Positions 2,040-61,951 of a stretch of 64,000 nucleotides of DNA are shown here, piece by piece (position 1 is the stretch's first letter; every line of letters starts with the position of its first letter). This DNA comes from Octopus vulgaris (lineage: Eukaryota). Made by a program: the position numbers and the translations under genes. The notes beneath the pieces are model-generated. The model saw nothing but the letters and a program-made list of their open reading frames with translations. It searched no databases and was not told the origin of the DNA. The DNA is taken from positions 55,924,001-55,988,000 of the forward strand of contig OX597831.1 of assembly GCA_951406725.2 (NCBI GenBank), in the 5' to 3' direction.

Positions 2040-3200
2040 CTTTGAGTAGGACTGGTCTAAATTACTCAAAAATGAAAATACCACTGACATCTCTTTTTAA
2101 CAGATATATTTACCGAAATTGCATAAAAATATCTTGAAATACTAAAGAGAAATTTTGTTCAATAAAATTGCCATTGACTTCAACCTCGGCCTCCAGGCGA
2201 CTTCGGAATCTCCTGCAACTCTTCTGGGCGGTCTCTCTGTTTAAGTTCTTGAAGGCTGCCATAATCCTTGCCTTCAATTCATCTTTGATGTTACAAGGAG
2301 TTTTGTTAGTTTTTCGCTCAACTGCGCTCCACACATAATCGAGGGGGTCGCAGTCAGGAGAGTTAGGTGGCCAGAAGTTAGGGCCGATGTGATTGCAGAA
2401 ATAGTCTGACAGCCATGACTGGGTTCTCCTGTTTGTGTGGCATGATGCAGAGTCCTGTTGCCAGACCAGTCCAGCAGCCACCGTCTTGACCCAGGGCAGC
2501 ACTACCTCCTCCAGGCACTTGATGAGGCCGGGTGGGAAGATGAATGTAGGCATAACGTCGCAATCACAAGTGATCACTCCAAACACCATGATGTTGACTG
2601 GATGTTTGATTTTTATAACTCTCGGTACATGTTTTGGGGTCACGACAAACCAACGGTTGTTTTGTGTGTTCACCATCTGAACCTGGCAGAAATTTTTCTC
2701 GTCTGAGAAAAACCAAAGCACGTTTGGTTAGCGGGAATGCTTGAGTTTGTACAAAAATTTCGTAGCGCGGTCTTTCCTCTTGTCCTTCATGGCATGGGAT
2801 TAAGATTGGCCCCTTCTCATCTAGTATGAGAAATACTGAATGTCTTCATGCACTTACCTGCCCGATAAGAAACTCAGACACTACCATGTCCCTGGCGATG
2901 AACCTGATTGACTTGGAGAGATCGTTATCAAGCATGGCCTGGATCTCACCAACAAATTTAGCAGCTTTTCTTATCAGAACGATCAGAGTGAGTTTTCCGA
3001 GCTTCTGTACCGTCGTAATCACCATTAGACTCATCCAACTCTTTCCGAATCCTCTGCACTGTTTGTTTCTATGGATCAAGGTATTTCTTGTATGCTTTTT
3101 CCGGAGATGGATCCTCTACGAAAGTTTTCCATCGAGAAATTACGGCATTATTATTTCAATTTTCATTTTGTATTTTTCATTTACGAATTTCTTTTCTGTA
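2040..3200 (-). mobile_element. Degenerate Tc1/mariner transposon, maT/Bmmar1 (DD37D) family
   Basis: ORF 2110-2721 has FSDEK, WQQDSA and WPPNSPDCDPLDY with 37 residues between the 2nd and 3rd Asp. An HTH-like fragment lies at 2846-3079. Reading frame is disrupted and ends are approximate. Confidence 0.9.
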
Positions 3201-4898: not shown

Positions 4899-6056
4899 AG
4901 TAAATTGGGAGAATGGCTTCATGACTTTCTGAAGGATAGAAGTCAGGGGCCACTTCCATTAACACGCAAATAGTGAGCGGTGTTCCGCAAGGCACTGTTT
5001 TGGGACCACTACTGTTCATAATGGCCCTCTCAGACATGCCCTCAGCCACGCAGAGAGCCACGATCACAACTTATGCAGATGATACAAAAGTTTCACAGGC
5101 AATACAGAACCCTGAAGACACTATGCACCTGCAATGTGAGCTGGACAAAATATACAAGTGGGCTGAAAAGAATAGCATGCAGTTCAATGCTGAAAAGTTT
5201 CAAGCTTTATGCTATCAGCATGCAAAACTAAATGCAATACCCAATAAATACACTGGACCTGGAGGGATTGCAATCCCAGAGGCACAATCAGTGCGAGACC
5301 TGGGTATTTACATGAGTGATGATGCAACCTTTCATGTGCATGTTGCTAAATTGGCAATGAAATGTAGGCGGCTGACCGGATGGATTCTTAGAACCTTTAG
5401 AACAAGAGAACAAGAAACCATGATGGTCCTCTAGGACACTTGTCCTAAGCCACTTTGACTATTGCTCTTAGCTATGGTCACCATACAGTGTCAAGTTAAT
5501 CACAGAACTTGAGACGATCCAACGAAGCTACATGAAGAAGATAGCCTCTGTGCAGCATATAAGCTATTGGGAAAGACTCAAGAGATTGAGACTCTATTCC
5601 TTAGAGCGTAGGCGAGAAAGATATGTCATAATATACATCTGGAAGATCCTAGAAGGACTTGTCCCAAACTTTGGCATCGAGAGTTACACAAATGCCAGAA
5701 CTGGGCGCCACTGCATAGTGCCAAGGACTCCAAATTTGCCATCAAGATGTAGGACAAGATACTGCGATAGCCTGGGCTTCCGAGGCCCACAGCTCTTCAA
5801 TATCCTCCCGAAGAATCTAAGAGACCTGCATGGGGTGGATGCAGATGTCTTTAAAATAAAACTGGATCTTTTCTTGTCAGGTGTCCCAGATGAACCAACT
5901 TCACGGCAGGAGGTGCAGATGAGGGCAGCTGCATCGAACTCTCTCATGCACCAAATGGCAATTGCTAAAAAGCATTCGTGAAGTAAAATCATGTAGCAAC
6001 ACCAAATGGCGGTGCCCCAGCATGGCCACAGCTTGTGAGCTGAAACTAGATAAAAA
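4897..6056 (+). mobile_element. 5'-truncated CR1/L2-group LINE (RT and C-terminal part, inactivated) inside (AT)n
   Basis: [52 protein letters not shown]. Premature stops near 5432-5470. 3' stem-loop tail GGCGGTGCCCCAGCATGGCCACAGCTTGTGAGCTGAAAC. Confidence 0.92.
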
Positions 6057-7162
6057 TATATATATATATTGTTAGAATACGACTGTACGTAAGGTGTTTG
6101 GTGACATATTTCTCCTCTTGTACGCCGCACAGCCGCATCCCAACATAACATATTAATAATATAAGCCATAATACATATATATATTATGCAGTGCCAATGT
6201 AAATGAATAAAGGACGCCAAAACCTTTCTACTTTTATAAAAAGAAGATAGATTTTATTCACAGTGTACAAAGTGAGTTGTGATTACTAGCGTAGTCTTCT
6301 GGTATGAATGCATGCGTATAGTATTTGTGTATGTGTGTGTGTTCGTGTGTGCGACAGAAGGTACAGATAACGGTGCATGCGAATACAACAGAAATACAGA
6401 GCATAAGAGAAGTCTCAACATATTGAGTTAAGATAGAGTTATTTTACCAGTTCATGTAGTACACGATAATAAGTTCTATAACAAGATTTGGGTCTCGAAG
6501 TGGAGATTAGTTGAGTCACTTGTTGTGCATGTTTCTCTTGATATAGATGTTCTTTCAGATATATATACCGCAACTGTTTTTCCGTGGTGATAGTTTCACA
6601 CAAACAGCGTGAGTTGAATCTGTGTATTTATCTTGTTTTGTACAAGTTGAAATCTTCGGAGATGGAGACGACGCTGGTGATGACGTTCTGCCTGCCGCTG
6701 GTATACAATAGCGTCTTCATAGTATGATTTGACTGTTGTCTGTCTTTCGAACTGGAACATGGTTGAGTAAGCTCTGTGTGGTCTCCGACCAGACCTTAGA
6801 AGGTCTTAAGCCGAAAGACGGTGAATCGTGGAATAATCAGCCTATTTATGGATTGAAGATGGCTCAATTGAAATATCCTATCCGAAAGCCGTGATTGGTC
6901 AGTTTACACACTGGCGCGAAATAAGTAGAGAGACAGACCGCGCTTAGATGCTAACCAATCAGATCAGTGGACACAACAAGGTTAAACTAGCCAAATATGT
7001 TTGTAATCTCAAACGAGATAATTCCTAATGTTTTTCTCAAACAGTGAAGATAGCAATGAAGATAGCAATATTGCTACAATATATACACACACACACATAT
7101 GTGTGTGTGTATTTATATGTCTATCTATCAAACTATCTATCTGTCAGTATGTGTGCGTGCGT

Positions 7163-8902: not shown

Positions 8903-8943
<41 letters not shown>

Positions 8944-9005
8944 AAATGGGAGAAGAACGCAAAACATTCAGAAGACGATACAAAAAACACGGACGGGTCA
9001 TTCGA

Positions 9006-9071
9006 AGCCTTCAATCTTCAGTCAAGAACCGGATCATCCTCGCAATTTCGGCTGATTAATCTTGAGATTGC
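9006..9071 (-). ncRNA. Non-circularly permuted hammerhead motif, version 1, copy 1
   Basis: Minus strand GCAAT-C-TCAAGA-ttaatc-AGCC-GAA-ATTGC-(14 nt)-TCTTGA-CTGAAGA-ttgaa-GGCT. Stem III 5 bp, stem I 6 bp, AUC triplet. Host element spans about 8940-9130. Confidence 0.75.
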
Positions 9072-9147
9072 TCCAATCTGGCCAGCCCCAAGGAAAAACT
9101 AAGCTAAGAGCATTAGATTCTTTGGAAAAAAAAATTTATATATATAT

Positions 9148-11778: not shown

Positions 11779-13190
11779 CAAGGTGCATTCCAGAAGTTTT
11801 TAAACTTTTTTAAAGGAGATATTTATTTAACTTCAATGAAGTACTAAACCCTGATCTCTTTCAAAATAAGACCCTCCAACTTCAATGCACTAGTTGCAGC
11901 GCTCCAGTCACTTCATGAAAACCCCATATAAATCTCCCAAAGTGAAGGTGTTCAGGACCCTCGTCACAGCCTCCACCATCGTCAAAACGATCGCCTCTGA
12001 AGTTCTCCTTCAAATTGAGGAACAACAATAGGTCACAAGGAGCAAGGTCTGGACTGTAGGAAGGGAGAGGAACAGTTTTGATATCCATTCTTGTCAAATA
12101 GTTAGTTACCGGAATGGAATTGTGAACTGGTGCATTGTCCTGGTGCAGGTGTTCTGAACTTTTGCGTCGAAATCTCTTCATTTTTTTTTTCATTTTTATT
12201 TTCATCTAGTTTCAGCTCACGAGCAGTGGCCATGCAGGGACACCACCATTCGGTGTTGCTACGTGATTTTACTTCACGAATGCTTTTTAGCAATTGACAT
12301 TTGGTGCATGAGAGAGTTTGATGCAGCTGCCCTCATCTGCACCTCCTGCCGTGAAGTTGGTTCATCTGGGACACTTGACAGGAAGAGATCCAGCTTTATT
12401 TTAAAGACATCCGCATCCACCCCATGCAGGTCTCTCAGGTCCTTCGGGAGGATATTGAAGAGCTGTGGACCTCTGAAGCCCAGGCTATCACAGTATCTTG
12501 CCCTACATCTTGATTGCAAATTTGGAGTCCTTGGCACTATGCAGTGGCGCCCAGTTCTAGTATTTGTGTAGCTCTCGATGCCAAAGTTTGGGACAAGTCC
12601 TTCCAGGATCTTCCAGATGTATATTATGGCATATCTTTCTCGCCTACGCTCTAAGGAATAGAGTCTTAATCTCTTGAGTCTTTCCCAATAGCTTATATGC
12701 TGCATAGCGGTTACCTTCGTGTAGCTTCGTTGGATTGCCTCAAGTTCTGTGATTAATTTGACACTGGCTGGTGACCATAGCTGAGAGCAATAGTCAAAGT
12801 GGCTTAGGACAAGTGTCCTCCAGAGGACCATCATGGTTTCCTGGTCTCTTGTTCAAAAAGCTCTAAGAATCCAAACTAAATTCCTGAACTAAATTCAAGA
12901 CTTCCGCTAAGTACTCATTGTTGACCATACGTCTAGAAAGAATCCAGCGGATATAGATGGTGCCGTTGCTGACGAGGAAGGGTTTTATCATGAACTTCCC
13001 AGTGAACTTTATTTTCCCGGACTCTTCTACTAGAGAAAAAACATGCTAACCTCATAAAATTTATCAATGAAAAGTCTCGAGCATTTCATGAGTTTCTGTA
13101 GCGATTTTTGCCCCAACACAAAACTTTATTGCATTAAGACTTCCCAAATTATTTCACGTCTCGACTGCATTCTGCAAACTAGTCACCTTT
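11779..13190 (-). mobile_element. Degenerate mariner (DD34D) transposon interrupted by a LINE
   Basis: HQDNAPVH...YSPDLAPCD at about 12030-12150. The upstream part (GTIYIRW..MVNNEYLAEVL) resumes after 12876. The end CAAGGTGCATTCCAGAAGTTTT recurs at 48764. Confidence 0.85.
12185..12875 (-). mobile_element. 5'-truncated CR1/L2-group LINE, same family as 4897-6056
   Basis: ORF 12274-12834 is near-identical to the translation of about 5420-5981 and has the same 3' tail. Confidence 0.92.
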
Positions 13191-13460: not shown

Positions 13461-13946
13461 TATATATTCCTCCAATCTGGCCAGCCCCAAGGAAAAACTA
13501 AGCTAAGAGCATTAGATTCCTTGGAAAAAAGCTTCGAATGTATACGAAACAAGGACGGAAAAACGGACGATGTTACACGAATATAAATACAAAAATAATA
13601 CAAAAAAAGCAATAATAATAATAATGACAACAGGGCATCACAACATGCGTCTTTCGACTGGAGACGAATTGAATTCAGCCGGCGTGTTAGGAATTAAGCC
13701 TTTGCGGCAGAGGAAAAATGTCGATGTGACAGCGACCGCTGCCAAACCCAAAAAGGCCTGTAGTCGGCTAACGGTCACGTGAGAAGAGAAGAGAGTGTGT
13801 TGTAGAAGTCGTACAAAGTTTAGTGAAATGTGTACTTACATATAAGAGAACAAAGTGTATGTACGCCGCTATATATATATATATATATATATAAATACAA
13901 AATGAGACAAGAACGCAAAACATCCAGAAGACGTTACAAAAAACAC

Positions 13947-14011
13947 GCCTTTAATCTTCAGTCAAGAACTGGATCATCCTCGCAATTTCGGCTGATTAAT
14001 CTTGAGATTGC
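13947..14011 (-). ncRNA. Non-circularly permuted hammerhead motif, version 1, copy 2
   Basis: Stems I and III are identical to 9006-9071. Differences fall in the linker, the 5-nt insert after the core and the last base of stem II. Confidence 0.75.
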
Positions 14012-14195: not shown

Positions 14196-14625
14196 AGAAG
14201 AAATGAAACTCGTCAATAAGACATTTTAACAGAAAATGATGGATATGTATAGTTATTTACTGAACGCTATTAATATTGTTTGAAAAAACGTTATATGATA
14301 TAACATCAGAAGTAGCCTATAGAAAGAGGAGGGATATATTTTTAGTGAATGTTAAATATATATGTATATATATGTATATATGTATATATATATATGTATA
14401 TATATGTATATATATATATATATATATAGCAATAATAATTCTCTAAATGAGATATAGACAGTAACTGCTCCATAACATAAGGGACTAAAGCCATCTGAAT
14501 ATGGCTAGGGACAGGGCAGGGTGGTGTTACTGTTGCATTTAGCCCCAGGCGAACATCAACGTCGCCAGATAGGCTTGACACCATCACGGCGTCCTCTATC
14601 CTGCAAAGGGAGATAATTCCCCGAT

Positions 14626-14698
14626 GAAGCGGAAACCACACACGGACCTAGGTTTCAAGGTGTTTGCCTATTATCAACGTATGGTAGGCACCCGCTTC
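14626..14698 (-). ncRNA. Type I hammerhead, U3-A8 variant, extended stem I
   Basis: Reverse complement of 15182-15254. Confidence 0.82.
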
Positions 14699-15181
14699 CT
14701 CGATGAATCACTCACTCTGCAGGATATTTATATAGATTTTCAAGCAAAATACATTTGCTGATTTCGAAAATCTGTTCGACAGCAATAATAATTCTCTAAA
14801 TGAGATATAGACAGTAACTGCTCCATAACATAAGGGACTAAAGCCATCTGAATATGGCTAGGGACAGGGCAGGGTGGTGGGGGTGTTACCGCTTCATCGG
14901 GGAATTATCTCCCTTTGCAGGATAGAGGACGCCGTGATGGTGTCAAGCCTATCTGGCGACGTTGATGTTCGCCTGGGGCTAAACACAACAGTAACACCCC
15001 CACCACCCTGCCCTGTCCCTAGCCATATTCAGATGGCTTTAGTCCCTTATGTTATGGAGCAGTTACTGTCTATATCTCATTTAGAGAATTATTATTGCTG
15101 TCGAACAGATTTTCGAAATCAGCAAATGTATTTTGCTTGAAAATCTATATAAATATCCTGCAGAGTTAGTGGTTCGTCGAG

Positions 15182-15254
15182 GAAGCGGGTGCCTACCATA
15201 CGTTGATAATAGGCAAACACCTTGAAACCTAGGTCCGTGTGTGGTTTCCGCTTC
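15182..15254 (+). ncRNA. Type I hammerhead, U3-A8 variant, extended stem I
   Basis: GAAGCGG..CATACG-TTGATAA-tAGG caaaca CCTt-GAA-ACCTAGGT-C-CGTGTG..CCGCTTC. Predicted cleavage after 15235 (GUC). Confidence 0.82.
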
Positions 15255-15409
15255 ATCGGGGAATTATCTCTCTTTGCAGGATAGAGGACGCCGTGATGGT
15301 GTCAAGCCTATCTGGCGACGTTGATGTTCGCCTGGGGCTAAATGCAACAGTAACACCACCCTGCCCTGTCCCTAGCCATATTCAGATGGCTTTAGTCCCT
15401 TATGCAGTC

Positions 15410-40443: not shown

Positions 40444-40503
40444 CCCCTTCATCAGCTGTCCCTAGTTCAACTCCAGCGTGTTTCGAAGGTGAGGACAGAA
40501 CAC

Positions 40504-40504
<1 letters not shown>
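40444..40504 (-). ncRNA. Non-circularly permuted hammerhead motif, version 2
   Basis: Minus strand CGTGT-T-CTGTCC-tca-CCTTC-GAA-ACACG-(15 nt)-GGACAG-CTGATGA-aGGGG. GUU triplet. Host is about 40318-40504 between (AT)n tracts. Confidence 0.78.
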
Positions 40505-44487: not shown

Positions 44488-45011
44488 GGCGGTGGGCTGA
44501 CAGAATAGTTACCACGTCTGAGAAAATGCTTAGCAACAATTCTTTCAGATCTTTACGCTTTGTGTTCAAATATCGCCGAGATCAACTTTGCCTTTCATCC
44601 TTTCGAGGCCGATAAAATAAAGTACCAATCAAGTATTTGTGTCCCTCATTATTCCTCAACGAGCTAATGATATTGTCTTGTAGTAATGTTATGCCATCAG
44701 AGTTTATCTTCGGGTCTCTCTTCATAATTAACACTGCACAGTTACTTATTCCAAACTGCATTGTAGAATCCTATTGTTATTAGGCAGAGGAAGTACAGAC
44801 ACGTCAATAGCCCGGACTAAATGGCTAACAACATTTAGTTACATCTCATTACGTTCTGATATCAAATATCATCGAGGATGACTTTGCCTCTCATTTTAGA
44901 TTCGATAAAATATATTGCTAGCTATGTACGTGGTTGATTAAATTGATTACATCCTTACTCCCAACAGTTGTGGTCTCATTCTAATGTAAAATCATCATTA
45001 TTACATTCCAG

Positions 45012-46319
45012 CTCAGCGTAACGAAAGCATACCAGAGTCTTCTACAAAGAAACTAACATCAAAAGAAAGTATCAAAACTTCAAAACCCAGGAAGAAATCT
45101 TCACGCCTTTTCACCTCAAAAGAGTTTACATCAACGAGAAATGGACACAGTCGGTCAAATCTTTCTTCGACTCAAGACAACACTCATATAACGCTTCGGA
45201 TAGAGAGAATAAAAAGAGCAGCAATGGTAACAGCATCAAGAAATGCAGCTACGGCGCCAAATGCAACAGTATCAAATACAACAGCGTCAGGATCTACAAC
45301 AACGGCATCAAATACAACAGCGTCAGGAAATACAGCAACAAAATTACCAAAAACCACTGTGCCAATAACGACAATCAATATGAAATCACTTATTTCACTT
45401 CTTGCAAACTATACGGTTACCGAACAATACAATAACGCAACCATCTCGGATAACATATATGATTCGCCAAAGCATAATGACACGATTACTTTTGCAACTA
45501 GTCAGGATAATGAAACGATCACTTTTGCAACTCGTCAGGAAAGTATAGAATCTACACCGGAAACAACATTGGCATCCAGCTCTTTCACTTCAGCATCAGA
45601 TTTATCAACAGCAAAAGATACTGGTGATATGTTTCGCACAGTATCCGTATCAGCTGAACAGAATTGGAAAACGCACAGGCCTCGTCTGCTGCCGGTAATA
45701 GTGACAGAACCTTTAACATCAGAGAATCTAATTAATACGACTTCGCGTTGGACTGTATCAAAGGATTTACCCATAAATAATAGTTCGAGTGAAGTTATAT
45801 CAAGCGCACTTCCAAGGAATATCACAAAGAATTCTTTGAATGAAACAAAATCCGCTGACGTATTTATTACATCATCCACTCTCGTAGATTCAGTCATAAC
45901 ATCACAAGCTACATCTCTCAACATAAACTGGACAGCCCACCCTTCCAGATTATCGTTGGCAATAGAGACAGAAGCTGCAACGCCAGAGAATTTAATCGAT
46001 ACAACTTTAAATGAAGCTTTATCAAAGGATTTACTCCGAAATAATTCGTCAATAAGAGATACATCAAATACTTTATTGGGAAATGTTAGTGAGACCTTTA
46101 CACAAACAATAACCACAACATTGAATCAATTCCACGATAAATTACAAGCAGAAAGTAGTTCCACTACGACAAAATATTTATTCAGAAATATTCCTACTCG
46201 CACCGAACCTCCGAAGGTCTCTATACATAAAACAACCAACGATATAAACAATATTAGTAGTACACTTGCACCGACTCGTAACTTTTTCTTGACGTATTCC
46301 GGCAAGGCAGCCATACCAG
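45012..46319 (+). CDS. Mucin-like membrane protein, coding exon 3 (Ser/Thr-rich stalk)
   Basis: 1308-nt open, non-microsatellite frame. TTCCAG acceptor and G|GTTAGT donor, phase 1-1. Many N-x-S/T sequons and an RIKR furin-like site. Confidence 0.88.
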
Positions 46320-46465
46320 GTTAGTCCATTGTTATTTGCATTTCTAAAATTAAACGAAGAAGAAAACCACAGATTCCTGACCCCCCTCTTATCTTAAGAT
46401 ACACTCTGCTTTAATCTTATTAAAGCTTGCAGAATCATTACCGCGTCGAACAAATTGCCTAGCAG

Positions 46466-54244: not shown

Positions 54245-54975
54245 ATGGATGGATCGATGGATGGACGGACGGACAGACGGACGGACGGACGGACGGACGG
54301 ACGGAGGGAGGAAGGGAGGAAGGGAGGGAGGGAGGGGGATAGAGGGAGGGAGGGATAGGGGAGGGCGGGTGGGGTGGGGGATGGAGGGAGGGAGGGAGGG
54401 AGGGAGGGATGGAAGGATGGATGGATGGATGGAGGGAGGGAGAGAGGGATGGAAGGGTGGAGGGAGGGATGGAAGGGTGGAGGGACGGAGCGATGGATGG
54501 ATGGATGGAAGGATGGAGGGAGGGAGGGAGGGAGGGAGGGAGGGAGGGATGGAAGGATGGAGGGAGGGAGGGAGCGATGGAGGGATGGATGGAGGGATGG
54601 ATGGATAGGCGGAGGGATGGATGGATAATTATTAGTTTCAAATAAAATGCCTGTTAGAAATTATTTGTGTGTTAGAATTTTGATGGATTGATCGATGGAT
54701 TGATGGATGGATGGGTGGGTGAGTGGATGGATGGGTGGATAGGTGGGTTGAGGAGTGGGTGGGTGAGTAGGTGGGTGGATGGGTGGACTGATGGATGGAT
54801 CGATGGATCGATGGGTGGGTGTGTGGTTGGGTGGATGGGTGGGTGGATGGATGGATGGGTGGATGGATGGGTGGATGGTTGGATAATTATTAGTTATTAC
54901 AAAATGTCAGAAATTATTTGTGTGTTTGAATTTGGATGGATGAATGGATGGATGGGTGGAAGGAGGGATGGATTA
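54245..54975. repeat. (GGAT/GGAC/GGGA)n purine-rich tetranucleotide arrays
   Basis: Directly visible. Many GGG tracts. Confidence 0.95.
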
Positions 54976-55024
54976 TTAGTTTAAACATAATGTCTGTTAG
55001 AAATCGTTTCTTTTTGAATTTTGA

Positions 55025-56183
55025 TGACAGTTGATCGAATTTAGACTAGTGGACAGTTGATCGAATTTTAGCAAGTGGACAGTTGATCGAATTTACACCA
55101 GTGGACAATTGATCGAATTTGCACATGTAAACAGTTGATCAAGTTTACACCGGTGGACAGTTGATCGAATTTTCGCTAGTGGGCAATTGATTGAAATGCA
55201 AAAGTAGACAGTAGATCGAATTTACACAATTGCACAGTTGATCGAATTTACACCAGTGGACAATTGATCGAATTTTCGCTAGTGGACAGTTGATCGAATT
55301 TGCACAAGAAGACAATTGATCGAATTTTCCCTAGTGGACAATTGATCGAATTTACACCAGTGGGCAGTTGATAGAATTTGCGCTAGTTGACAGTTGATCG
55401 AATTTACACCAGTGGACAGTTGAACGAATGTTTGCTAGTGGACAGTTGATCGAATTTGCACAAGTAGACAGTTGAACGAATTTAGACCAGTAGACATTCA
55501 ATCGAATTTGTGCTAGTGGATACTAGATCGAATTTTCGCTAGTGGACAGTTAATCGAATTTACACAAGTAGACAGTTGAACGAATTTAGACTAGTGGACA
55601 GTCTATCGAATTTTCCCTAGTTGACAATTGATCGAAATACACAATTAGACAGTTGATCAAATTTACACCTGTGGACAGTTGATCGAATTTGCACCATTGG
55701 ATAGTTGATCGACGTTAGACCAGTGGACAGTTGATCGAATTTGCGCTAGCGGACAGTTAATCAAATTTCCACCAGTGGGCAGTTGATAGAATTTGAAAAA
55801 GTAGACAGTTGATCGAATTTACGCTATTAGTGGATCGACGTTAGACCAGTGGACAGTTGATCAAATTTTTGCTAGTGGACAGCTGACCGAATTTACACCA
55901 GCGGACGGTTGATCGAATTTTCGCTACTGCACAGTGGATCGAATTTGCACAAGAAGATAATTGATCAAACTTTCGCTATTGGACTGTTGATCGAATTTAC
56001 ACCAGAGTGCAGTTGATAGAATTTGCGCTAATGGACAGTTGATCGAATTTACACCAGTGGCCAGTTGAACGAATGTTTGCTAGTGGACAGTTGATCGAAT
56101 TTGCATAAGTAGACAGTTGAACGAATTTAGACCAGTGGAAGTCAATCGAATTTTCGCTAGTGGATAGTTGATCGAATTTAGAC
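55025..56183. repeat. Minisatellite, 22-23 bp unit, about 50 copies
   Basis: Consensus GTGGACAGTTGATCGAATTT plus a variable ACACCA/TCGCTA/GCACAA/AGACCA segment. Confidence 0.95.
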
Positions 56184-57442
56184 TTACCACACAGCCACAA
56201 ACTCCACACATCTTCTCAATAGAAAAGTTGCAGTAATACAACGACGATGATAAAATAAGATTTAAATCAGTAAAAACAATCACTACACATTTAAATGTAA
56301 ACAAACCACAAATACACAAAAGCCACTGACACGTACATCCGCAAACCATATACACGCATACATACACACTTACAAACCACAAACACACACACGTCTGAAT
56401 TAAATATGGACGCCAAAAAAAACAACAAAGCAGTAACGTCGACAAAACTGCAATACACAGAGAGAGGGAGAGGCTTGACAACAAATAAATGAACATAAAC
56501 ACATAAACAACATAAGCACAACAACATAAACACAAGAAAAAATCAGTTGGAGATTGGCAATAAACTATTCAACAGCAATAAAGAGGTAAATTAAACCAGT
56601 GCGTGTGTTTTTATTTTATTGGCCAAATGACCGTCCTAAAATTCAACTATATCATTTATAACACGCTTACATATAAAACATCTTGAAAAGCAAATGCATG
56701 ATCCCCTGTTTGGCAAGGTAAAAGGGTTGAATTTCTCTGGGTCAATTGTAGAATATACGAATATTGGAATGTAGTGATACTGAGATACTGAAATACAAGA
56801 TAAACTGAAAAGTAAACAGGATTTTTTGAAGTTGATGGGGGTAAAATCATGAAGCGGGTTAAGGAGCACAGTAGAAAAAGGGTTAGTGTTTGATCTGTGT
56901 GACCTTTGAAGAAAATAAGAAAAGTAAGGTAAGGTAGAAATTATAGAACTTACGATAAGAGTAAAAATTAGATGTTAGATTTTTAAAAAGAAACATGCGG
57001 TTTGAGAAAATTGTCTTAAATACAGAGTGTATCAATGTGGAGAGAAAAAAATGAAATAGAGAAAAATAAACAATGGGAAACAAATTCAAAGAGAAAAAAT
57101 TCCATCCTATGAGCTGGAAGTTTTAGAAATCTTGTGGGAAAATGAAAGAATCCAGAAAACGAAGTAATAATGGAACATTCTATTGCCGGCGCAGAAATTC
57201 CGCACAGTAGACACAAATATAAAAGTAGTACAAGAATGTAATGCATCGTTAATGACTACCAAACTTTGAATTATTTTAACCCTTTTACTTGGTTAAAACA
57301 TTTTCGTAAATTTGTCCTAAAAATGTCCCTGCTTGTTTTCAGGTTTTTAATCTGCTCTTGTTTCAAACATTCTGAAAATATAAACCTTTTCTTTTATATA
57401 TCCCAAGTAACACTGACGGTTGAAGAAAATTGGGAATGTATA

Positions 57443-60274: not shown

Positions 60275-60779
60275 ATAACCGCCAGACTTCGTATTCTGTC
60301 ATGCCCGGAGTCCAACTTTGATAGAAATAAGCATTCTTGACTGCTATTTCTATTTTTTCGGTATGCGGTCAAGCAACCTGTTTTGCCTGTCCCTTTTTCT
60401 TATATACAATATATACACTGAACTTTACAGAAGTTCCTGCCGGTAATCGGCTATATTTACATACCGAATTCTACCAGTAAATAATTGGGTTTTTTTTAAA
60501 AGCCTTTATAGAAATTATTTACTCTTATCATTATATTATATATATATATATATATATATATCATGGCGTTCAATCATATAATAATATAAATAATATATAC
60601 ATGCATATATACATACGTATACGTACATACTTACATGCATACGTATATACAAATGCATATGTGAGCACAGGACGCCACAAAAAATATACAACAAAAAATA
60701 CGAAGTACGATGACATGGAATAAGGGCTTTTTTACAAGCAACGAAAGAAGCAAATGGAAGACAAGACAAGCAACACAAG

Positions 60780-60847
60780 GAACGACCCTTCTTCAGTTGT
60801 CGGCTGTTTTTCTAATCCGTATTTCGAGCAATTCACGACAAGATACG
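60780..60847 (-). ncRNA. Non-circularly permuted hammerhead motif, version 3
   Basis: Minus strand CGTAT-C-TTGTCG-tgaatt-GCTC-GAA-ATACG-(15 nt)-CGACAA-CTGAAGA-aGGGT. AUC triplet. Confidence 0.8.
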
Positions 60848-61224
60848 CCTTCGATAAAACAGTTGCTCCCGCAAAGCAAATTAAATAAAATTTGCGATCT
60901 TGCAGAGGGTCAAGATTGGTGACAAAAACAGCACCGTGAAAACAAACAGGAAGGGCTGCTAAGCCTAAACGAGGTTGTGGTGGCGAACGCGAAGAAACAA
61001 GTCTGAACAGGAGACAAAGAACAATACGTCTTGCCTGTCCAGCTGAAACAGGAAGAAAGAAACCCAAGTTAGGAGAATAGCCGATGGTCACGTGGGGGCC
61101 ACGTGAGCAAAGGAGGAAGAGTGAGGGAGAGAGAGTGGCAGACAGAGAACTGTGAAGGAGAGAGGAAAATATGTGGAGACAGGATAAGAGACAAAAAGAG
61201 GGAGAGGGAGAGGGAGAAGGGGAG

Positions 61225-61550
61225 GTAAAAGAAAGGAAGAGAGAAAGCGAAAGAGCAAAAGGATAGAATAGTGGGAGAGGAGGAGGTAAAAGAATAAGAG
61301 AAAGGAAGAGAGAAAACGACAGAGTAAAAGGGTAGAATAGTGAGAGAGGAGGAGGTAAAAGAATAAGAGAAAGGAAGAGAGAAAACGACAGAGTAAAAGG
61401 ATAGAATAGTGGGAGAGGAGGAGGTAAAAGAATAAGAGAAAGGAAGAGAGAAAACGACAGAGTAAAAGGGTAGAATAGTGAGAGAGGAAGAGGTAAAAGA
61501 ATAAGAGAAAGGAAAGGAGAAAATGAAAGAGTAAAAGGATAGAATACTTG
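61225..61550. repeat. 69-bp purine-rich minisatellite with alternating variants
   Basis: Units start at 61262, 61331, 61400, 61469 and 61538, alternating GATAGAATAGTGGG and GGTAGAATAGTGAG. Confidence 0.9.
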
Positions 61551-61818
61551 GAGAAGAGAGAAAAAAACGAATGATAGAATGATACAAGAGTCGTATCGGA
61601 GTTAGGATAAAACTTACTTGGAAAAGGATGCGTGGCGTTCAATCATATAATAATAAAAATTATATATATATATGTATATATATATGCATATATACATACG
61701 AAGTACGAGGACATGGAATAAGGGACGTATGTATATATGCATATATATATGACCGCGTGTGTACCGTTGGCAATTTTTTTCCTCCGTCTTCCCTTCCTTG
61801 GATCTTTCCTTTTCCTAT

Positions 61819-61853
61819 GTTTCTGACGAAGAGCTCCGCTCGAAACGTTAAAT
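61819..61853 (+). ncRNA. Minimal hammerhead with canonical core (dimer-type stem III)
   Basis: GTTT-CTGACGA-aGAGC tcc GCTC-GAA-ACGT-T-AAAT in element 61751-61956, flanked by (AT)n. Confidence 0.78.
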
Positions 61854-61951
61854 CCTCCTTCTTTCTTTCCTTTCCCGAGCGTCCAATAACACTATACTTG
61901 TTCCACGTCCTCGCGTTGTTGTGTTTTCTCTTTGTGTTTTCATGTTTGGAT

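Follow-up and report, generated by a model that had tools for sequence, protein, structure and literature searches.

Hammerhead ribozymes with a non-circular order of their conserved blocks were described by Eckert et al. in 2023 (PMC10085705). The accessible part of this paper names the order S-G-C "type SGC" (HRIMA-1 and variants), lists 583 such sequences, which derive from metatranscriptomes and occur beside hairpin ribozymes, and demonstrates cleavage at 0.007-0.19 per minute. An additional helix connecting the stem I and stem II regions (I-II helix) is needed for the activity of SGC-3. To match the type SGC descriptors, a sequence has to contain CUGAUGAG or CUGAUGAUG as well as CGAAA, and its stem II has to be paired. 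According to the same part of the text, the genomes of known organisms yielded no motif, one weak bacterial GCS candidate excepted, and type CSG comprises two metagenomic sequences with modest covariation.

Hammerheads are also linked to Penelope-like retroelements (PLEs). Minimal type I hammerheads sit in PLE terminal repeats, and in vivo evidence for their role in these elements is lacking (Cervera and de la Pena 2014, PMC4209133). Animal non-LTR retrozymes represent non-autonomous, hammerhead-bearing elements proposed to originate from PLE terminal repeats (PMC7229834; bioRxiv 10.64898/2026.07.22.740005, both as far as accessible); the accessible text of the latter contains neither "SGC" nor a cephalopod. 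For the PLE group termed Naiads, the available portion of Craig et al. 2021 (PMC8557442) reports that canonical hammerheads were undetected, and uses this lack to argue that hammerheads may merely parasitise PLEs. Some of the Naiad consensus sequences published therein bear the labels "HHR_core" (9) or "HHR_half_core" (8), Octopus and Euprymna included. A literature search, with most subscription papers outside its coverage, returned no report that places SGC or CSG hammerheads in PLEs or in the genome of an animal.

Here, we analyze a stretch of 64,000 nucleotides from Octopus vulgaris, in the following termed the window, together with the genome from which it originates. We consider it likely that the window harbours a type SGC, doubly pseudoknotted hammerhead in the 3' part of non-autonomous PLEs, and that autonomous Naiads carry a ribozyme of the same type.

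A permuted hammerhead motif in the octopus window

The block order S-G-C forms a hammerhead core at 60785-60847 on the minus strand (family A). Block S is composed of the 5' strand of stem III (III-b, CGUAU, 60847-60843; partner 60818-60822), C17 (60842) and the stem I strand 3' of the cut (I-a, UUGUCG, 60841-60836; partner 60797-60802). A 6-nt linker leads from stem I to stem II and thus to block G (60818-60829), which contains the stem II strand GCUC (II-b), GAA (GAAA with the following base) and the 3' strand of stem III (III-a, AUACG, 60822-60818). A 15-nt linker then connects stem III to stem I and block C (60785-60802), where the stem I strand CGACAA (I-b, 60802-60797) is followed by the core heptamer CUGAAGA (60796-60790), a single additional A that separates A9 from G10.1, and the stem II strand GGGU (II-a, 60788-60785). 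Cleavage is predicted after C60842, which closes an AUC triplet. The family A consensus keeps the 6 bp of stem I and the 5 bp of stem III.

Three further type SGC motifs are found on the minus strand. The family B motif (40444-40504) has a GUU triplet, which is a slow hammerhead triplet, and forms the 5' edge of a truncated element ending at approximately 40139. A family C motif (9006-9071) lies within a truncated element (approximately 8940-9134), and an older family C copy (13947-14011) shows a deletion 3' of the core and is adjoined by an inverted piece (13466-13795). An earlier note on this DNA had read the order S1-S3-S2 on the minus strand, and all four sites read as it described, except that the motif, placed there at 60780-60847, actually ends at 60785. 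The order indeed recurs at 40444, 9006 and 13947; the independent stem sets are three, not four, since 9006 and 13947 represent one family, and the four sites thus divide into families A (60785), B (40444) and C (9006, 13947). The note was also right that the order is non-circular, in agreement with type SGC, and that permutations of this kind had been described before (PMC10085705, accessible part). Its proposal of a short tether from stem I to stem II fits the order and is not new, as it is already put forward in the accessible text of that paper.

The window was scanned with a descriptor for all six block orders (at least 5 pairs in stem I, 4 in stem III and 3 in stem II; up to 5 nt after A9). 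The scan returned the four SGC loci and one loose SCG match with 48-54-nt loops; the cyclic orders CGS, GSC and SCG gave no such fold at the four SGC sites. A conventional type I/II/III reading that uses the hairpin after CUGAAGA was ruled out, as no GAAA follows. Standard searches miss the motif, as the earlier note had anticipated: an Rfam search of 60650-61950 at E<=10 gave no hammerhead match, and for the whole window, hammerheads are absent among the best 150 of 263 matches, a list driven by microsatellites. The stems are short and G-U pairs were permitted, which might favour an accidental assembly of short motifs within AT-rich repeats. Such an origin is extremely improbable, given that 40 dinucleotide shuffles (200-nt blocks) produced one SGC match in total, i.e., 0.025 per shuffled window compared to four observed, and given the genome-wide excess and the covariation between subfamilies described below.

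The window contains several other features. A minimal type I hammerhead (61819-61853, plus strand; CUGACGA, extra A) resides in another repeat adjoining the family A element; it has a 4-bp stem II and a palindromic 2-bp stem III, its G block (GCUC-GAAA) is identical to that of family A, and it is not recognised by Rfam. A Ser/Thr-rich frame of 444 amino acids without a Pfam match occupies 44990-46324 on the plus strand, opposite to the strand holding all four SGC motifs, which possibly reflects an orientation bias inside a host gene. Furthermore, a 414-nt inverted repeat (14476-15404, 99% complementary) is made from a partly duplicated element, a tandem array with a repeat of approximately 26 nt spans 54974-56255, two LINE reverse transcriptase (RT) fragments (4940-6063, plus; 12192-12852, minus) are 93% alike in opposite orientation, and a DDE transposase remnant is located at 2110-2727 (minus).

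Abundance and covariation in the genome

In the genome (2.8 Gb), the G-then-C pattern YCGAAA-N17-30-CTGANGA has 34,215 matches versus 4,496 for the reversed control, an excess of approximately 30,000. With T at N7 the numbers are 12,480 and 784, and genome-wide all four bases occur at this position. A classification was possible for 28 of the 30 matches listed first for N7=T: 20 belong to larger SGC groups, and the other eight include several singleton SGC-like sequences, at least one type I hammerhead and one random-looking sequence. False positives for this pattern come, among others, from a further repeat family (loci L126 and L188), whose hammerhead is type I-like (CUGAUGA, long stem II, GAAAC).

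Clustering of 325 instances yielded 17 groups with at least three members, and 110 instances fell into smaller groups. Two of the 17 clusters are unrelated repeats and were dropped. The consensus sequences of the remaining groups were built by majority rule, ignoring pairing, and 11 of the 15 form a stem I of at least 5 bp together with a stem III of at least 4 bp; two of the other four consensuses are shortened by truncation, and two groups are small and imperfect. Among the 10 fully Watson-Crick stem types, at least two pair types occur at 10 of the 11 stem I/III pairs, A15.1-U16.1 being constant, and swapping strands between these stem types leads to full pairing in only 2-7% of the combinations.

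An alignment of 24 copies, which were selected partly for good pairing, shows stem III paired to 93% and stem I to 96%, and at 10 of the 11 pairs both partners change. The covariation score of these chosen copies is reached by none of 500 shuffles, and sliding the register lowers the value from 0.76 to at most 0.19. The core (CUGAnGA, GAAA, UH and A15.1-U16.1) is invariant in 24/24 copies, CUGAnGA and GAAA having served as search anchors. Of 20 family A copies whose core is intact, only 5 retain the full set of 11 pairs, as expected of decaying copies. The motif is spread over at least 11 repeat subfamilies with covarying stems I and III.

Stem II and the search for an additional helix

Stem II is the weak part of the motif, and it is weak or absent in several subfamilies. 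In families A, B and D, it consists of 4 bp (two G-U) after the extra A and includes G10.1-C11.1. In family C, stem II requires either an insert of 5 nt following A9 or 2 nt between the stem and GAAA, the latter register giving 4 bp, the consensus sequences of C2 and of the young subfamily C3 have no stem II in either register, and in the octopus Naiad family it amounts to 2 bp. Over the 24 copies, stem II is paired to 66% when read with the extra A and to 54% when read with the 2-nt spacing. A C precedes GAAA in 15/15 groups, which is partly imposed by the search pattern, and a G is found three bases after A9 in 13/15; a single G-C pair is therefore possible in most groups. Against the fold, the II-a strand of families A and B is also covered by a competing hairpin.

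Nested folding performed no better than shuffles, the method being unable to represent pseudoknots. Candidates for the I-II helix exceeded shuffles in 1 of 24 tests (p=0.03). Helices between the 5' flank and the strand after the core, or between the III-to-I linker and downstream sequence, look good by eye, were no better than shuffles and were rejected.

The lack of stem II in C3 and C2, and its weakness or absence in several published SGC Naiad records as judged by eye, would suit a hammerhead-derived, non-catalytic pseudoknot that serves, e.g., as an RT handle, at least in subfamilies without stem II. We regard such a relic as rather improbable: the catalytic core bases and the NUH triplet are conserved while N7 and the stems vary, and the distribution of 5' ends discussed below also speaks against it.

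The carrier elements

The family A motif is embedded in a non-coding repeat, one unit of which (60579-61647, minus strand) spans approximately 1.07 kb, has a pyrimidine-rich 5' part and contains the ribozyme approximately 260 nt before its end. The 3' tail (60564-60578) repeats the first bases of the unit and is followed by (TA)n. Upstream, a partial copy of the unit 3' end (61648-61724, where 61724-61696 corresponds to 60726-60698) creates a partial tandem and starts approximately 115 nt 3' of the cut-site equivalent. The units of families B and C measure 0.78 and 0.73 kb, respectively, and in none of the three was a credible ORF found. A first-look DNA search of the genome yielded 3,333 candidates for family A, 2,437 for B and 1,750 for C. 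The B and C copies in the genome are 94-98% identical to those in the window and include partial tandems and adjoining inverted pieces.

Element copies have a fixed 3' end in (TA)n and a variable 5' end. Cephalopod microsatellite-resident repeats carry the motif, as the earlier note had claimed. Partial tandem and inverted copies, a short tail, 5' truncation and a microsatellite target are all found in families A, B and C, in agreement with the copy arrangements given for PLEs by Craig et al. 2021 (PMC8557442, accessible part), which look like non-autonomous PLEs with a ribozyme in their 3' part. No contiguous PLE ORF was found in 221 stretches upstream of A, B, C and their relatives, 65 of them at least 2.9 kb long. 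Three tblastn hits upstream of SGC copies were rejected as separate insertions, two by inspection and one because of its opposite strand.

The link to Naiad retrotransposons

The 54 published Naiad consensus sequences were read by eye around all four CUGAnGA heptamers, a procedure that misses motifs split between lines. Approximately 12 of the 54 records show the S-G-C order with stems I and III, namely two from octopus, three from Acropora, one from Euprymna and six more located by file part only; a ctenophore record is borderline. Another six, including three from Nippostrongylus and one from Haemonchus, show the order C-S-G with all stems and the I-II helix. No clear motif was seen by eye in the bivalve records. 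The nematode Naiads (PMC8557442, accessible part) thus carry near-perfect type CSG hammerheads with an I-II helix, as judged by eye, versus the two sequences in the accessible text of Eckert et al.

In the octopus genome, the 3'-end motif of the octopus Naiad (family N, which matches Naiad_Ovul by eye) has 316 matches compared to none in the control. At five loci (L262, L263, L264, L265 and L268), the motif lies 3' of RT fragments plus a common 3' UTR on the same strand. A sixth locus (L261) contains the Naiad-diagnostic DKA motif, lacks an intact ribozyme motif and aligns with the other five. Naiad copies in this genome are old (76-88% identity) and broken. Pfam did not recognise six Naiad RT fragments, and the N-terminal GIY-YIG endonuclease was not found in eight decayed, 5'-truncated Naiad-type loci; this domain is given by the published consensus (PMC8557442, accessible part). 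In summary, the SGC motif is physically linked to decayed Naiad RT sequence in this genome, and the permuted ribozyme probably explains the apparent lack of hammerheads in Naiads.

We lean slightly towards a Naiad-type origin of families A, B and C. Alternatively, the ribozyme assignment might be right and these families might be mobilised by, or derived from, a C-terminal-endonuclease PLE, e.g., the young 781-aa Neptune-like family. The high identity of the B and C copies (94-98%) as opposed to the old, broken Naiads would be consistent with this, as would the frequent occurrence of intact 781-aa Neptune-like ORFs and the absence of similarity, by eye only, between A, B or C and the Naiad 3' end outside the ribozyme. 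We deem this origin the less probable one. A Pfam search for GIY-YIG domains of an autonomous partner returned 30 loci (including one other nuclease gene and one unreadable locus), which were rejected as C-terminal-endonuclease PLE pieces without A/B/C 3' ends: their 3' sequences lack same-strand homology to A, B or C as well as any SGC motif, and at least two of them have a type I-like core with U3-A8. The three upstream tblastn hits, being separate insertions, likewise speak against such a partner.

In the 3' UTRs of Neptune-like PLEs (L116, approximately 2680-2710; L107, approximately 2465-2500), the type I-like core reads UUGAUAA, where U3-A8 replaces C3-G8, a change previously reported in PLE hammerheads (PMC4209133). 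A young PLE family (G000, e.g., L097 and L102) possesses intact 781-aa RT/GIY-YIG ORFs in many copies.

Folding in cis or in trans

Some published Naiad motifs exhibit a very long stem III almost abutting stem I (by eye), an arrangement hard to fold in cis, and the accessible text of Eckert et al. remarks on the same puzzle (PMC10085705). The ribozyme might be real and act in trans only, the S+G loop of one unit pairing with a C strand that belongs to a different unit or molecule. In tandem, the working order would be CSG or GCS, which are cyclic rotations of SGC, and cutting would be limited to multimers, similar to the dimeric type I hammerheads of PLEs. PLE hammerheads of metazoans show no activity as monomers and weak activity as multimers (PMC4209133), the octopus elements are found as partial tandems, and nematode Naiads use the order CSG. 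Nevertheless, we judge action exclusively in trans to be unlikely, since the III-to-I linker is constant at 13-16 nt in all 24 aligned copies, as a fold in cis requires, and single-motif SGC RNAs are cleaved during transcription (PMC10085705, accessible part).

A possible footprint of cleavage at 5' junctions

If the RNA is cut, many insertions should have their 5' end at the cut or slightly inside it. To define these ends, 80 consecutive listed family C matches (of 2,573) to a tag 3' of the ribozyme were taken regardless of their 5' structure. Relative to the predicted cut, 22 ends fall at 0 to +13, four at -14 to -1, four at +14 to +27 and two at +28 to +57; the whole range from -96 to -1 contains 13. 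This corresponds to 1.6 ends per base at 0 to +13 versus 0.14 upstream, and the difference between 22 ends and four in either neighbouring window has a binomial p of 0.0005. For 60 copies of the A/B/D group, all of which had to possess an intact GAAA, 14 ends compare with 2 (p=0.004). Of the 22 ends in the family C pile-up, no more than 2 coincide with the cut itself, and the others are located at AT/TA positions 2-13 nt inside, which match the (TA)n target; one deletion, one inversion and one tandem join are among the 22. Of the four ends at -14 to -1, two are the arms of a single inversion and one is a deletion.

For a non-catalytic relic, the pile-up would have to be explained by a stalled RT or by AT/TA microhomology within the I-to-II linker, and the ends do gather at AT/TA dinucleotides. 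Yet, the AT sites 3 and 13 nt upstream of the cut have no (TA)n-flanked ends, and thus microhomology accounts for the fine positions of the ends and not for the step. Stalling is unlikely, because the RT meets the structure, with blocks C and I-b first, at +28 to +57, where only 2/80 ends are found. The pile-up just 3' of the predicted cut suggests that cleavage takes place in vivo. As 52/80 family C copies extend past the cut, most templates were uncut.

A model for ribozyme function in retrotransposition

We propose that blocks S and G form a loop closed by stem III, upon which the C strand would dock via stem I plus a stem II of minimal length. The RNA would be cut after the NUH triplet, slowly or in part. 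A Penelope-type RT/GIY-YIG protein supplied in trans would prime at a (TA)n target near the unit 3' end and copy the template until the RNA runs out. Cut templates would give rise to insertions with a 5' end at, or a few bases inside, the cut, joined by AT/TA microhomology, and uncut templates to longer copies. In a tandem transcript, the 5' end of the RNA would be set by the upstream ribozyme. This part of the model fits the upstream partial copies, as all four that were inspected begin 3' of the cut, a number that does not represent a systematic count. An element that depends on a mostly uncut 3' ribozyme would be well served by a weak stem II.

Implications

While the topology itself is already known, the literature search retrieved no account of it in an animal genome at this scale, in PLE-type elements, with a reduced stem II and a genomic indication of cleavage in vivo. 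Non-circularly permuted RNAs hence cease to be a rarity known from unidentified RNA agents (583 sequences) and reach approximately 30,000 copies in one animal genome. The statement that Naiads lack hammerheads, which had served the argument that hammerheads may merely be PLE parasites, has to be revised. The 5'-junction step at the predicted cut provides a genomic read-out that is testable at scale, and the subfamilies form a natural series to address how far stem II of a hammerhead can be reduced. Searches of eukaryote genomes that rely on descriptors have probably counted too few ribozymes. A more tentative proposal, to which we give slightly less than even chances, is that SGC/CSG hammerheads constitute the characteristic ribozyme of Naiads and their non-autonomous derivatives across animal phyla, rank among the commonest in invertebrate genomes and cut in vivo, thereby defining where the retrotransposon RNA starts at its 5' end, including active forms with a stem II of 0-1 pair that are held by the pseudoknotted connectivity.

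Comparison with known systems

The octopus motif shares with type SGC, as presented in the accessible part of Eckert et al., the S-G-C order, the full core, the pseudoknotted stems and the short I-to-II linker. It differs by its location in an animal genome, its approximately 30,000 copies, the extra A or the 2 nt before GAAA, and a weak or absent stem II with candidate I-II helices that are mostly no better than shuffles. The published descriptors do not fit, since A9 is followed by another A in families A and B, and family C differs in N7 and register; therefore, the RefSeq search of Eckert et al. could miss the octopus motifs. Type CSG is absent from the octopus window; the six Naiad records in C-S-G order have, by eye, the three stems and the I-II helix of this type (PMC10085705, accessible part).

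Like the minimal type I hammerheads of PLEs (PMC4209133), the octopus motifs are very numerous, and families A, B and D possess the extra nucleotide after A9 and the G10.1-C11.1 pair. The PLE hammerheads have a circular order and a degenerate stem III and act as dimers, whereas the octopus motifs combine strong stems I and III with a degenerate stem II. With Naiads (PMC8557442, accessible part), families A, B and C have in common the (TA)n targets, 5' truncation and partial tandem and inverted copies, and unlike Naiads they are without an ORF. Finally, retrozymes, in their accessible descriptions, employ type I hammerheads in tandem arrays, whereas the octopus elements are dispersed units of 0.7-1.1 kb that carry a permuted ribozyme.
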